DNA of 64,000 bases, from the IMG/VR virus record IMGVR_UViG_3300021964_000045, positions 1-64,000 of that record. The stretch is one strand, 5' to 3'. Position 1 is the first letter of the stretch. Each line of letters begins with the position of its first letter. Made by a program: the position numbers and the translations under genes. Below the pieces are notes generated by a model, which saw only the letters and a list, made by a program, of their open reading frames with translations, searched no databases and was not told where the DNA came from. Below, in pieces: positions 6,902 through 32,400 of this stretch. The stretch comes from a virus.

Positions 6902-6911
6902 TTGTATATTA
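6902..6911 (+). promoter_or_regulatory. TTGTATATTA promoter-like motif upstream of the scaffold/MCP genes
   Basis: The identical 10-mer occurs in five intergenic gaps, each upstream of a start codon. Confidence 0.65.
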
Positions 6912-6950
6912 TATATGTAAGAAATAACAATTACAAAAACCAACAATATT

Positions 6951-8243
6951 ATGGCAACAGAAAGTAAAACAGTTGAGAGCAATGTAGCTCAAGTTGATAT
7001 TGATTTAGATAGCTTATTTGATGGAGCAGCCGGAGCAGGAAGCGTTACGGTACCAGAAGAAGATAAACCTAAATCTATATTTAGTAAACCAGAGAAAGTT
7101 GACATGTCATTTGCAGATCCTGAGTATAAAGAAGAGGATGCTGAAGATGATAAGGAAGCAGAAAAAGAGGATGACACTAAAGAAGAGTCAGAATCTAAAG
7201 AGTTAAATAATGATGATAAAAAAGATGCAGAAGATATTTTAAATGCATTTAATGATGATTCATTAGAAGAAGAAAAAGAAGAAAAAGAAACAAGAGGAAG
7301 AAAAAAGATTTCTGGAATAAGTGATGTATTTAACAAGCTTATTAAAGATGAAAAAATTGTTCCTTTTGATGATGATAAAGATTTAGCAGATTATTCTGCT
7401 AAAGATTGGCAGGAGCTTATTGAAGCTAACTTGGAGGAAAGAGCAAATCAAGTTAGAAGAGAAACTCCTAAACAGTTCTTTGAAAGTTTACCACAAGAAC
7501 TCCAAATTGCTGCACGTTATGTAGCTGATGGTGGTCAAGATTTAAAAGGTTTATTTTCTACGTTAGCAGAAGCTGAGACAAAGAAAAGCTTAGATGTTAG
7601 CAAAGAAAAAGATCAAGAAACTATAATCAGTGACTATCTACAAGCAACAGGATACGGCAATGCTGAAGAGATTGCTGAAGAGATTGAAATCTGGAAAGAC
7701 TTAGGAAAGCTTGAACAACAAGCTATGAAGTTCAAACCTAAGTTGGACAAGATGCAAGAAAAGGTTTTAGCTAAAAAGCTAGAAGAGCAAGAAATGCGTA
7801 AAGCACAACAGCAAAAAGCATCTCAGCAGTATATGGAGAATGTGTATAACACACTAAAAGAAGGAGCCCTAGGTGACTTAAAAGTTGATAGAAAGACACA
7901 GTCTATGCTATACAACGGATTAGTACAACCTAATTACCCTTCAGTTAGTGGAAAGAACACAAACTTGTTAGGTCATTTGCTTGAGAAGTATCAGTTTGTA
8001 GAACCAAACTATACATTAATTTCTGAAGCACTATGGTTGTTATCTGATCCAAATGGTTATAAAAACAAAATAATGGAGAAGGGTGCACAAAGTAGTGTAG
8101 AAAAAACAGTAAGAAAGCTAAAGACTGAACAAGCTAATGCTGGAGGTTCCTCTCTTGGAGTAGATCAACGTGAAGAAGAAACAAAATCACGTTCTACAAA
8201 AAGAAAGATACCAAGAAGCAATAACATATTTAAAAGGTTTTAA
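6951..8243 (+). CDS. putative capsid scaffold/assembly protein
   Basis: Highly acidic N-terminal half, helical C-terminal half and basic tail; lies between portal and MCP. Confidence 0.65.
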   Translation: MATESKTVESNVAQVDIDLDSLFDGAAGAGSVTVPEEDKPKSIFSKPEKVDMSFADPEYKEEDAEDDKEAEKEDDTKEESESKELNNDDKKDAEDILNAFNDDSLEEEKEEKETRGRKKISGISDVFNKLIKDEKIVPFDDDKDLADYSAKDWQELIEANLEERANQVRRETPKQFFESLPQELQIAARYVADGGQDLKGLFSTLAEAETKKSLDVSKEKDQETIISDYLQATGYGNAEEIAEEIEIWKDLGKLEQQAMKFKPKLDKMQEKVLAKKLEEQEMRKAQQQKASQQYMENVYNTLKEGALGDLKVDRKTQSMLYNGLVQPNYPSVSGKNTNLLGHLLEKYQFVEPNYTLISEALWLLSDPNGYKNKIMEKGAQSSVEKTVRKLKTEQANAGGSSLGVDQREEETKSRSTKRKIPRSNNIFKRF

Positions 8244-9926: not shown

Positions 9927-9963
9927 AAAGGGGAGGTTGGTAAAACTTCCTCCCTTTTTTTTT
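9927..9963 (+). terminator. intrinsic terminator after MCP
   Basis: GGGAGG...CCTCCC stem followed by a 9-T run. Confidence 0.85.
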
Positions 9964-10044: not shown

Positions 10045-10055
10045 TTGTACTTTTG
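10045..10055 (+). promoter_or_regulatory. Bacteroidota -7-like promoter element (TTGTACTTTTG)
   Basis: TACTTTTG at 10048-10055 fits TAnnTTTG and lies downstream of the MCP terminator. Confidence 0.45.
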
Positions 10056-10096
10056 AGTTAAACATAAACATTATTAATTTTTAAAAACCAAAGAAA

Positions 10097-12330: not shown

Positions 12331-12340
12331 TTGTATATTA
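12331..12340 (+). promoter_or_regulatory. TTGTATATTA promoter-like motif
   Basis: Repeated intergenic 10-mer; a TTG at 12311 lies 20 nt upstream of TATATTAT. Confidence 0.65.
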
Positions 12341-12393
12341 TATATGTGCAATGACGCACAATTATATATTTGTTAAATTTAAATTAGAAAAAA

Positions 12394-14280: not shown

Positions 14281-14299
14281 ATTAAAAAACCAATAAATT

Positions 14300-23084: not shown

Positions 23085-23094
23085 TTGTATATTA
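23085..23094 (+). promoter_or_regulatory. TTGTATATTA promoter-like motif
   Basis: Repeated 10-mer; a TTG at 23065 lies 20 nt upstream of TATATTAT. Confidence 0.65.
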
Positions 23095-23138
23095 TATATA
23101 TATACAAGTAGGTTTTCTAAGTTGTAAAATAGGATTTT

Positions 23139-25321: not shown

Positions 25322-25882
25322 ATGAGTTGTAATTGTAATACATGTAAATCAAGTCCGTGTGGTTGTAAAGATCATAGTTTAACTACACCTTGTGGTTATA
25401 CTGACTGTAGTCCAGGTAATGAAAGATGTGATGATGTACAGTGTACTGAATGTGTTTCATATTGTGGATCTACATTTCAAGTTGAAACACCAGGTGGTAT
25501 TTTAAAAATAAATACCGGTGAAAGGCTTGATATGATTATACAAAAATTTAGTTTAATGATAGCTAATGGTTTAGGTGTTTGTACTGCAGATAATGTACAT
25601 CATGCACCTTATAACGTTTATGCTGAAGATATTACAGATACAAGCATAACTGCAGTTTGGGGTGGTATATCTTCTTTAAGTACAGCATTTAATGTTTATT
25701 ATGATACTGTGGTTAGTCCATCTGGTTGGGTTTTAGCTAACGCAACTCCATTGGCAACAGCAATAGATGATTTTAACATTACTTTATTAGCACCAAGTAC
25801 AGAATATAAAATTAAAATAGTATCCGTTTTAGGATCAACAACTTGTGATTCAGTTGAGATTTTGGTTACTACAACAGCATAA
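25322..25882 (+). CDS. Cys-rich protein with C-terminal FN3-like domain
   Basis: Dense Cys cluster in the first 50 aa; ITDTSITAVW...LAPSTEYKIKI resembles FN3. Confidence 0.65.
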   Translation: MSCNCNTCKSSPCGCKDHSLTTPCGYTDCSPGNERCDDVQCTECVSYCGSTFQVETPGGILKINTGERLDMIIQKFSLMIANGLGVCTADNVHHAPYNVYAEDITDTSITAVWGGISSLSTAFNVYYDTVVSPSGWVLANATPLATAIDDFNITLLAPSTEYKIKIVSVLGSTTCDSVEILVTTTA

Positions 25883-25957
25883 CAACAAGAAGTGGTGGTT
25901 TGTTGGTTTTCTACTACTAACGTTGGAGAGGGTCCCTACGGGGACCTTCTTTTTTTT
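25883..25957 (+). ncRNA. candidate structured 3'-UTR RNA (hairpin with 12-nt U/G loop plus terminator)
   Basis: CAAC/GTTG outer stem, AGTGGTGG/CTACTACT inner stem with two G-U pairs, and loop TTTGTTGGTTTT complementary to three translation-initiation regions. Confidence 0.45.
25927..25957 (+). terminator. intrinsic terminator
   Basis: AGAGGGTCCC-TACG-GGGACCTTCT followed by a T run. Confidence 0.9.
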
Positions 25958-26002
25958 ATACAATAAATTTTAATATATTTGGTAAACTTTTAAATATTTC
26001 TT

Positions 26003-29410: not shown

Positions 29411-32400
29411 ATGGCAAAGAAAAGAAATACAAAAAAAGCCAGCAAACCTAATTTACAAAATACATCTAGTGTAGACATTAGAATATTTTTAAAAGGTATG
29501 GTTAAAGATCCTAATGCTTCTTTTCAACAAAAAGATACTTGGTCTCACGCACGTAATGCAATAAATAATTCTGTAGACGGAGATGTAGGTTTGTTAGGTA
29601 ATGAACCAGCAAACGTAGCTTGTGGTAGAGCGCCTTATACTATTATAGGAGCAGTGCATACTTATTCAGATCAATGGATTATTTATTCCACTGATAATGT
29701 TAATTCAGAAATTGGACTATTTGATGATAGCAAATGTGAATATACTACTTTAGTTAATGATCCATGTTTAGCATTCAATCAACATCATTTAATAACAGGT
29801 GCAGCAAAAGAAAATTTTGATTGTACTTGGCAAGTATATTGGGATGATGGAAATAATCCATCCAGGACACTTAACATAGATGATATACCTTGGAAACAAA
29901 TTGTTGTATCTAATCCAGGAGATCCTTGTGTTATATATGAAGATACCAATGATTTAGATTGTGAAAAAATAAGACTTGCTCCTTTGTTAGATACGCCTTG
30001 CGTTAAGATAAAAAAGTCTGAAAGTGGTGGTCAGTTAAGAAATGGATCATACCAAGTCTTTATAGCTTATACTGTAAATGAACAAAAGGTAACTGATTAT
30101 ATTGGAGTATCTAATATTCAATCATTATTTGATCATGCAGGTACTTCTGGTTCATTAGCTATAAACGTTACTAATCTTGATAAAGAATTTGATTATTATG
30201 AGTTAGTAATACTAAGTAATAATCAAGAAAATACTGTTGCAAAAAAAATAGGATTATATAGCACTGAGCAATCAGATATAGAAATAGATTATATTGATCA
30301 ATCTTTAGTTACTGTACCTCTAGAATTTATACCTCTGCGTACACCTGCTTATGAAAAATCAGATGCAATGTATGTTGTAAATGATTATTTAATAAGACAA
30401 GGACCTACAGAACAATTTGATTTTAACTACCAACCTCTTGCTAATAAAATAAAAACAAGATGGACTGTAGCTGAATACCCTGCTGACTACTATTATAAAA
30501 GTGGTAATAAAACAGGATTCATGCGTGATGAGCAATACGCTTTTTTTATAAGGTGGATTTACAACACAGGTGAAAGATCAAGTTCATATCACATACCAGG
30601 TAGAGCACCAAGAACAAATGGAGTTAATCAATTTGGACAGACTGTTGATGAGACAGCAATTAATGTTACACAAAATGCATTAAACGGTACAGAACAAAAT
30701 TATCAAGTTTATAATACTGCTACTATAACTCAGCCTAGTTTAAGTATACCCACTGGTGATGGAGGTACTATTATTGCAAAAGGGGATATGGCTTATTGGG
30801 AGTCAACTGAAAAATATCCAGCAACTAGACCAGATCTATGGAATACTTCTTCAAATCCTATATGGGGAGGTGGTAATCCAGATTATGATTTATGTGGCTT
30901 ACCCATAAGACATCATAAAATGCCAACAGAAGAAATTGGATCTCAGTTAATGCTTTCTGGTCTAAATGCTGGTGGTGCTAATACAATAAGAATCCTTGGT
31001 GTTGAATTTTATGATATACAACCTCCTTTAGATAATGATGGTAATTTGATTACTAACATAGTTGGTTATGAAATACTAAGAGGTTCAAGAGAAGGTCATA
31101 GATCTATTCTTGCAAAAGGTATATTTAGAAACATGAGAGTTTATGATATACCAGACGGTGGACAAACTCTTGGTAATGATAAAGGATTATATCCAAATTA
31201 TCCATACAATGATTTAAGACCTGATATATTTTTTCATGATGGTAAGAAAAATGATCAACACAGAACAGATGGTTGTGATAATTTTACTCAGTCTAAAAAT
31301 AATTACAAGCCCTTAACAGGTTATAAAAAAGATTACTTTACATTTCATTCACCTGAATTAATGTTTAGAAAGCCTTTTTTAAATGCTTATGAAACTAGAA
31401 TATATGGTGAGTTAAATGGTGAGTCTGTTGGTAAATTTATAAAATCAGAAAATCACCCTCAAAATAAATTATTAAGAAATGGTGCTGCAATTGTTGCCGG
31501 GCTTTTTGGTATTGGTTATGCAGTCAGACAAGTTCAAGGAGAAACAACAAAAGAACAACAAGCACTTCAAGGTTTTAATCCAATATATGCACCATGGTTT
31601 GTTGGTGGTCCAGGTTCTACAGGTGGTACTTTTACAGGTGGTTTTACTGCAGCAAGTGGTACGATACCACTAATGGCAGGTGGAAGTGCTATAGCTAATA
31701 TCCTTGTTAATGAGCTTTTAAAAAATGCCGTAGATGTTAGTGATATATATACGGGTGGTCTTGTATCTGATTTAGTATTGGAAGGTAGAGGAGCAACTAG
31801 CTTTTTAGCTACTGCTGCTCCTGGTACAATGGGTGGTGGAGTGAATAGAGGTGTTACCTATACTAGCCCTGACTCTGCAATACCTAGTTTATTAGGTGTA
31901 GCTATGGGTCTTGTTATTGCTCAGAAAAATATTACAATAGGAGCTCAAGAACTTATTGATTTAATGTATAACCTTGTTGCTGAAGATGATTTTGCATTTA
32001 AATATAATTCACATGGATTTTATAATTTTTTTAGAAAAAGATTATCTAATCAACTTTATAGAACCAAAAATAAAAATGCTAATTATGTAAAAAGTTCATT
32101 TCAAGAATTTGAAGGTTTTAAAATAAATAATTTATTTAGACCAATGACAGTTGCAATTGCAACAGAAGATGAATTTGATAATCCTATTAAACTTGATAAT
32201 TCTAGATATGCAATTGGTGGTGATGCTACTTCTGACTACTTAGATAATTTTTTAGAAAATCCAGAGCAAGAACAAACAAGAAATATATCTGCCTTATATG
32301 GTGGTTTGAAATTTGAGTTTGAAAATCAGTATGGTCAATTGGATGGTATTAAACAAGTTCAAATGAAAGGGTGTGTTGAATTAATTACTGCAGAAAACAC

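Follow-up and report, generated by a model that had tools for sequence, protein, structure and literature searches.

DicF of the Qin prophage is a base-pairing small RNA (sRNA) of the kind that derives from a 3' UTR or ends at a terminator. The c4 antisense RNA of phages P1 and P7 and the CI RNA of P4 are processed phage RNAs whose loops pair with short repeated sites in their own transcripts; both govern immunity or lysogeny and share an operon with their targets, which they precede. Antitermination RNAs are promoter-proximal and act on downstream terminators, boxB being a short hairpin with a 5-nt loop that is accompanied by a linear boxA, and put consisting of two stem-loops. To our knowledge, most members of Bacteroidota lack Hfq. 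CisR, an sRNA from the prtV 3'UTR, is reported to act on the cep mRNA of CTX-phi (PMC13250501). The CA-rich translational enhancers with which GcvB pairs precede ribosome-binding sites; its seed R1 masks those of gltI and yifK, and SgrS blocks the S1-dependent enhancer of manY (PMC7534054). Trans-acting sRNAs that pair around start regions also operate in a phylum poor in Shine-Dalgarno (SD) sequences, as GibS and other sRNAs of Bacteroides thetaiotaomicron illustrate (PMC7366714).

The element analyzed here is a hairpin with an adjoining intrinsic terminator in the genome of an uncultured phage. It is like the 3'-UTR-derived and terminator-ended sRNAs in having a stem-loop with a conserved single-stranded candidate seed, in using the terminator of its parent operon and in facing putative targets in 5' leaders. 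It differs from them in being known from sequence alone, in carrying its seed in a 12-nt hairpin loop and in having hosts from a clade without SD-led initiation. With GcvB and SgrS it shares a G/U-rich seed opposite an unstructured C/A-rich element that stands at a variable distance upstream of the start codon and is common to several mRNAs, and the expected mechanism, masking of a ribosome-loading element, would be like that of GcvB. However, it has no sequence or structural homology to these sRNAs (no Rfam match), is phage-encoded and would target head-assembly genes of its own phage. The c4 and CI RNAs, which control a set of genes, are alike in being phage-encoded RNAs whose loops face sites in their own transcripts, but the RNA described here would be the 3'-terminal part of a late operon, and its candidate targets lie 11-19 kb upstream. 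A search of the whole window (defined below) against Rfam 15 gave no family at its gathering threshold, and the best sub-threshold matches were generic sRNA-plus-terminator models. GibS (RF04182) scored 22.9 bits and FopS (RF04319) 15.7 bits against gathering thresholds of 115 and 56 bits, which amounts to a generic stem-loop-plus-terminator likeness. The first-pass annotation knew of no such element in crAss-like phages, and we likewise found none in Rfam 15 or in the literature on crAss-like phage small RNAs; a literature search with the loop/tag motif string returned unrelated primers only.

The window, by which we mean the whole 64,000-nt stretch of DNA that was analyzed, is one strand-coherent stretch of 32% G+C and is part of a 76.9-kb uncultured virus fragment. 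We classify the virus as a marine crAss-related phage. In tblastn comparisons its terminase is 24-27% identical to crAss-like phage terminases, and for the capsid protein the identities to Lbo-JY46, csAssE-Sib and the Cellulophaga phages phi4:1 and phi17:2 range from 24 to 29%. No close cultured relative emerged from tblastn searches with the exonuclease, capsid and terminase proteins, whose best matches (24-29% identical) were to Lbo-JY46 and to crAss-like, Cellulophaga and Flavobacterium phages. Blastn searches with the 4-kb neighborhood of the hairpin and with the 85-nt element against 50,697 phage records returned nothing, or noise. The hairpin begins directly after the stop codon (25880-25882) of a 186-aa FN3-like gene on the + strand, the last of the structural block, which has a weak match to the PHROG category "major tail protein". 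On its 3' side, a gene for a 406-aa DNA-repair-exonuclease homologue (+ strand, start 26003) opens the next operon. Between the two lies a -7 box of the TAnnTTTG type (TATATTTGG, 25974-25982, + strand), the likely promoter of the exonuclease operon; a similar box follows the terminator in relatives. The consensus used is that refined for Flavobacterium johnsoniae (PMC6847099). Because the terminator is followed by this box, the hairpin and terminator appear to close the preceding transcription unit. Judged by promoter type, we assign the host of the phage to Bacteroidota. A search with the phage histidine kinase against genome contigs gave weak Herbaspirillum matches only, and no host.

The first-pass annotation had proposed that the whole gap between the stop codon and the terminator folds as RNA on the + strand, and RNAfold of 25870-25975 reproduced that structure in full. 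An outer 4-bp helix pairs CAAC (25883-25886), directly after the stop codon, with GTTG (25922-25925). An inner stem pairs AGTGGTGG (25891-25898) with CTACTACT (25911-25918), two of its pairs being G-U, and displays the 12-nt loop UUUGUUGGUUUU (25899-25910), the candidate seed. The adjoining intrinsic terminator (25926-25957), with an 11-bp G+C-rich stem, a tetraloop and U8, would form the 3' end of the RNA. Together, hairpin and terminator fold at -31.4 kcal/mol (z -3.9), and none of 200 shuffled sequences folded as well; the hairpin alone is only modestly stable (-10.7 kcal/mol, z -1.8), being equalled by 11 of 200 shuffles. Both the minimum free energy (MFE) and the centroid structures leave the loop unpaired. 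The reverse strand does not fold, and in the alignment of the window's family two stem positions are mostly G-U; such frequent G-U pairs imply a structure that exists only in the + sense RNA. This layout of a stem-loop and then an intrinsic terminator, ending a coding transcript, is common to every relative examined that has the hairpin.

Two other kinds of element were considered. A structure acting at the level of DNA, such as a cruciform or an N4-like hairpin promoter, was rejected in view of the strand-specific G-U pairs and of the terminator and host-type promoter that follow. In its layout the element does not match phage antitermination RNAs such as lambda nut boxB or HK022 put either: its one hairpin, with a 12-nt loop, closes an operon of ~19 kb, 0 nt from a terminator that is itself followed by a fresh promoter.

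Comparative data establish decisively that the hairpin is real and selected far beyond chance. Our first relative set comprised 80 viral contigs anchored on the exonuclease (64-84% protein identity), 79 of them with an intact upstream gap. Lack of loop conservation among relatives had been named at the outset as grounds for dismissing the element. The loop was identical in 79/79 of these syntenic gaps, down to an exonuclease identity of 64%, and in all 79 a terminator of unrelated sequence adjoins the hairpin. Stem covariation, the companion check, was also observed: in an alignment of 55 hairpins from the window's family (43 distinct), pairing is kept at 98% across the 7 inner pairs, and double compensatory changes occur at 4 of them. 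The CAAC...GTTG outer helix is kept in most relatives, around a variable internal loop, and one contig (L054) is without both arms together. Four of five complete genomes of ~116 kb hold one copy of the element, and the fifth has two extra exact loop 12-mers. Rarer loop variants occur in more distant relatives (UUUUGUUUGGUUUU, UUUAGUUGGUUUU, UUUGUUGGUAUAU, UUUCUUGGUUU, UUGUUGGUUUG and UUGUUGGUUU), and UUGGU is kept in every variant seen. By our sequence comparisons, the hairpin has kept its position in hundreds of relatives.

A scan of IMG/VR for the loop 14-mer GTTTGTTGGTTTTC uncovered, among the matches listed, a second group of contigs; the other matches listed were chance occurrences inside genes. 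This second family, again among the matches listed, has the same loop (GUUUGUUGGUUUUC) on entirely different covarying stems and with a different terminator. Its gene order is as in the window, a tail-fibre gene, hairpin and terminator being followed by genes of 416, 242, 158, 323 and 1691 aa, and its 416-aa exonuclease homologue is 25% identical to that of the window, its capsid protein about 20%. Pooling both families gave at least 59 hairpins (58 distinct), in which 7/7 stem pairs show double changes and 96% of cells are paired, the corresponding values being 64% for column shuffles and 38-59% for slid controls. Because contigs entered this pooled set through a search with the loop, it is necessarily invariant there, which is not so in the protein-anchored sets. 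As a separate observation, six second-family contigs (L367, L417, L423, L430, L432 and L438) carry a conserved palindrome, TAACTAAnTTAGTTA, between terminator and exonuclease gene, ~10-30 nt past the terminator; a DNA-binding regulator of the exonuclease operon may use it as its operator.

Among cultured phages, Leptolyngbya phage Lbo-JY46, whose capsid protein is 29% identical to that of the window, has a hairpin (AUAUAAA-UUUGUUGGUUG-UUUAUAU) and terminator upstream of an exonuclease homologue. The recorded host of this phage (PP438436.1, L362-L364) is cyanobacterial, and TAnnTTTG boxes such as taactttgtaaac and attttgtaaatc precede its structural genes. Given these Bacteroidota-style boxes and a loop as in the marine phages, its host assignment may deserve a check. 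Cellulophaga phage phi4:1 carries an 11-bp look-alike hairpin with the loop UUUUUGGUUUUU after its tail-fibre gene, followed by a terminator and promoter-like sequence. Phage phi17:2 is identical to phi4:1 in the hairpin gap and so adds no independent support, leaving the phi4:1 element as a single observation; a search for its relatives with gp045 recovered phi4:1 itself only. The crAss-like Flavobacterium phage Fpv20 had neither hairpin nor tag in the structural half examined.

The loop has as its complement the word AAAACCAACAAA. The first-pass annotation had pointed to three complementary sites on the + strand just upstream of genes, and RNAduplex returned the same positions and pairings. 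The best candidate target is the leader of the scaffold-like gene, where AAAACCAACAA (6936-6946; ATG 6951) would form 11 bp with the loop at -12.4 kcal/mol, the third-best loop duplex on the whole + strand of the window. Before a 40-aa Cys-rich ORF, AAAACCAATAAA (14286-14297; ATG 14300) would form 12 bp with one G-U (-11.2 kcal/mol), and before the 338-aa gene that follows the capsid gene, AAAACCAAAGAA (10084-10095; ATG 10097) would form 8+3 bp (-7.5 kcal/mol). Very little secondary structure is predicted in the three leaders, whose folding energies over 60 nt are -1.9 to -3.4 kcal/mol. The + strand of the window contains 6 copies of AAAACCAA, of which 3 lie just before start codons.

The shared core of these sites, AAACCAA, is kept in orthologous leaders. 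Within positions -30..-1 it is found before the scaffold-like gene in 82/84 leaders and before the 338-aa post-capsid gene in 78/80, compared with 0/89 for the capsid gene. The scaffold-like leader has a conserved block, AAAACCAACAA(A), set between variable positions, and the boundaries of this block are those of the complement of the entire 12-nt loop. The 338-aa gene's leader keeps AAAA(A)CCAA, usually followed by an A that faces a loop G. The orthologue of the Cys-rich ORF has the tag in G006, G007, G010, G013 and L434, and has it altered or absent in G011 and G012. In L434, a lineage whose exonuclease is 40% identical, AAACCAA stands in the same orthologous leaders. Across the 80 capsid-anchored loci plus the window (~1 Mb), about half of 383 + strand copies of AAACCAA lie 0-18 nt before an ORF start, with a spacer peak of 5-7 nt; start-region counts are approximate, gene calls being crude (ATG-only, longest ORFs). 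AAACCAA was also the commonest of the 21 A5C2 words at start regions in 5/5 family genomes tested, a permutation test that we used in place of a 7-mer z-score enrichment, which was dominated by singletons.

In the second family, both genes flanking the capsid gene (L494-L571, G016-G018) share a leader of ~26 nt, AAACCAA-N5-7-TAAACTACAT-ATG, which the capsid gene does not have. The TAAACTACAT stretch is conserved and is not complementary to the loop, so this leader has functions of its own. In phi4:1, the leader of the post-capsid gene gp063 contains AAAACCAAAAA, which matches the tag imperfectly and is complementary over 11 nt to the loop of phi4:1 itself. Tag and ATG are about 5-8 nt apart in the window's family; the second family has 18-25 nt between them, and phi4:1 has 11-25 nt.

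Several further motifs were noted in these genomes. The lowest loop duplex energy on the + strand, -13.0 kcal/mol and reliant on G-U pairs, belongs to AAAAGCCAGCAAA (29434-29446), 24-36 nt inside a 1695-aa ORF (ATG 29411), a match that may be coincidence. AAACCAA also stands just before the ATG of a 171-aa gene in G009 and G010 and of a 102-110-aa gene in G006 and G007, outside the head module; the tagged set is thus larger than three genes and depends on lineage. In the window genome, AAAAACCAA is the tag word and TTTGTATATTA a promoter-like motif. An intergenic motif, TTGTATATTATATAT, occurs at 6902-6916, 12331-12345 and 23085-23099, upstream of the + strand genes that start at 6951, 12394 and 23139. 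This motif differs from the host-type TAnnTTTG boxes and may be a late promoter specific to the phage. It directly abuts AAACCAAC in L083, L098, L153, L154 and G014. A strong intrinsic terminator (GGGGAGG...CCTCCC, T9) lies at 9930-9963, right after the capsid gene, and a TACTTTTG -7 box at 10048-10055; with these two signals, the tagged 338-aa gene appears to start its own transcription unit.

Whether loop and tag are complementary beyond chance was approached in several ways, with mixed results. The first-pass annotation had proposed comparing enrichment at start codons with AT-matched controls and had cautioned that the match is short and the genome AT-rich. That caution was justified: at 7, 8 and 9 complementary bases alike, the true loop matched no more start regions than did 219 composition-matched permutations of it (U9G3). 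U-rich loops pair with A-rich leaders anyway, by composition, so the raw enrichment does not carry the argument for pairing. In our reading of the alignments, the support comes instead from conservation of orthologous leaders.

Natural variants give a divided picture as well. One genome fits compensation (G007): an additional U in the loop (GUUUGG) goes together with CCAAAU at the scaffold site, which forms 12 bp with this genome's own loop versus 8 bp with the canonical one. Two others do not fit. In G011 a loop G is changed to C opposite a leader base A, and in G012 the loop ends in GGUAUAU and has lost its U-run while the leaders keep AAAAACC. The core UUGG/CCAA never varies in loops or tags, and a table of loop variants versus leader variants in the second family held no informative combinations. 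Some of the pairings are weak, with only 8 contiguous bp in the 338-aa gene's leader and only 7-8 bp in the second family. In 115 kb of Lbo-JY46, in which the hairpin is present, the start regions are devoid of AAACCAA, indicating that the loop is conserved more deeply than these targets.

With these data in hand, we propose that the hairpin is probably a phage-made RNA that controls translation of the tagged head-assembly genes. The stem drifts and the loop is frozen, which argues that the element is read through its loop. Pairing of loop and leader is the most economical account, since the loop complement is the sole conserved block of the scaffold leader and its core is kept in 2-3 orthologous leaders in every lineage with a canonical hairpin, down to 20-25% protein identity. 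Specifically, positions 25883-25957 would be the 3' end of the late structural transcript, with the loop UUUGUUGGUUUU displayed on a hairpin stacked on the terminator, and a discrete RNA would accumulate. Its loop, acting as a seed, would pair in trans with the tag (A)AAACCAA(C) in the unstructured leaders of the scaffold-like, post-capsid and small Cys-rich ORF mRNAs, leaving the capsid mRNA alone. In F. johnsoniae an A-rich upstream stretch contributes to initiation, and Bacteroidia initiate via upstream adenines, those at -12 to -15 possibly being read by bS1 (PMC6847099). The proposed duplex would cover an A-rich stretch at about -6 to -16, and the predicted outcome is repressed translation initiation through masking of an upstream A/C-rich ribosome-loading element. 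Repression is favored because unstructured leaders offer nothing for an activating RNA to open. We consider it somewhat more probable than not that the element is a terminator-ended base-pairing RNA masking a C/A-rich leader element. Being made as the end of the structural/tail-fibre transcript, the RNA could lower synthesis of the tagged proteins, and the output of head-assembly genes would be tied to accumulation of the late/tail-fibre transcript. We speculate that, with continuing late transcription, less of the scaffold-like and accessory head proteins is made compared with the capsid protein, whose mRNA has no tag.

The main rival to this proposal, which we think possible but doubtful, is that the loop is a docking site for a host or phage RNA-binding protein or for a conserved host RNA, the complementarity to AAACCAA being secondary or coincidental. 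Candidate proteins would be a single-strand binder of the RRM or cold-shock type, or a termination/antitermination factor at the adjacent terminator. Such an account explains well the extreme conservation of the loop, of which 12-14 nt are identical across families whose proteins are 20-25% identical, as would suit a partner that does not drift. It also accommodates the Lbo-JY46 hairpin without tagged leaders, the invariance of the loop's 5' half (UUUGU) where most targets pair only with UUGGUUUU, the mostly uncompensated variants of loop and target, the equal performance of permuted loops at start regions, and a hairpin that always adjoins a terminator at an operon boundary. Invariance as such does not discriminate pairing from another partner, however, since shared use by several targets should freeze a seed as well. 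No candidate partner emerged, and docking leaves aside two features of the leaders: the same 2-3 orthologous leaders keep the loop-core complement in every family with the canonical hairpin, and the conserved block of the scaffold leader coincides with the full loop. If, by contrast, the hairpin were a purely cis-acting 3'-end element that stabilizes the mRNA against 3' exonucleases or assists termination, no sequence-specific partner would be needed; its place directly upstream of a terminator on which it could stack, and its occurrence as a single copy ending a long operon, would agree with such a role. A stabilizer needs only a stem, though, and here the stem drifts and the unpaired loop is frozen, the opposite of what is predicted, so we judge this explanation improbable.

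The first-pass annotation had offered an antisense repressor or a surrogate anti-SD adaptor as alternatives for a phage-encoded RNA binding initiation regions. The part of that interpretation that holds is a selected + strand structure with an invariant loop and a tag kept before three genes; the adaptor part fares poorly, because the spacing of the tag varies. As an adaptor, the RNA would bind the ribosome and its loop would recruit tagged mRNAs, with activation rather than repression as the result. In favor of such an adaptor, ribosomes of Bacteroidia are reported to be blind to SD sequences (PMC7797042, PMC13000457). In the window's family the tag ends at an SD-like distance before the ATG (about 5-8 nt), and loop and tag are co-conserved as SD and anti-SD are. 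Yet no fixed SD-like spacing holds across families (18-25 nt in the second family, 11-25 nt in phi4:1), and outside its loop the 75-nt RNA has no conserved part that could dock on a ribosome, stems and terminators varying freely. The most abundant virion protein, capsid, has no tag (0/89), and nothing links the RNA to the ribosome. We therefore hold the adaptor to be very unlikely. An extended form, to which we give as little credence, is that RNA and tag are a phage-owned pair replacing SD/anti-SD in the SD-blind Bacteroidota, a private translation channel for a few assembly genes. Tagged mRNAs would then be docked on host ribosomes or on a phage-modified subset of them, and the co-conservation of loop and tag would reflect a lock-in like that which freezes the anti-SD.

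Returning to the base-pairing RNA that we favor, its consequences would reach beyond this genome. If the pairing is true, crAss-related phages would gain their first described regulatory RNA, and the hairpin would be one of the rare phage RNAs by which morphogenesis genes of the same phage are tuned. It would also exemplify post-transcriptional control on non-SD leaders, exerted by masking an upstream A/C-rich element. Cultured phi4:1, with its look-alike element, and Lbo-JY46, with a near-identical loop, are possible experimental systems. Since 14 identical bases persist across families of ~25% protein identity, the loop may also serve as a compact single-copy marker for a group of uncultured marine and freshwater phages in metagenomes.
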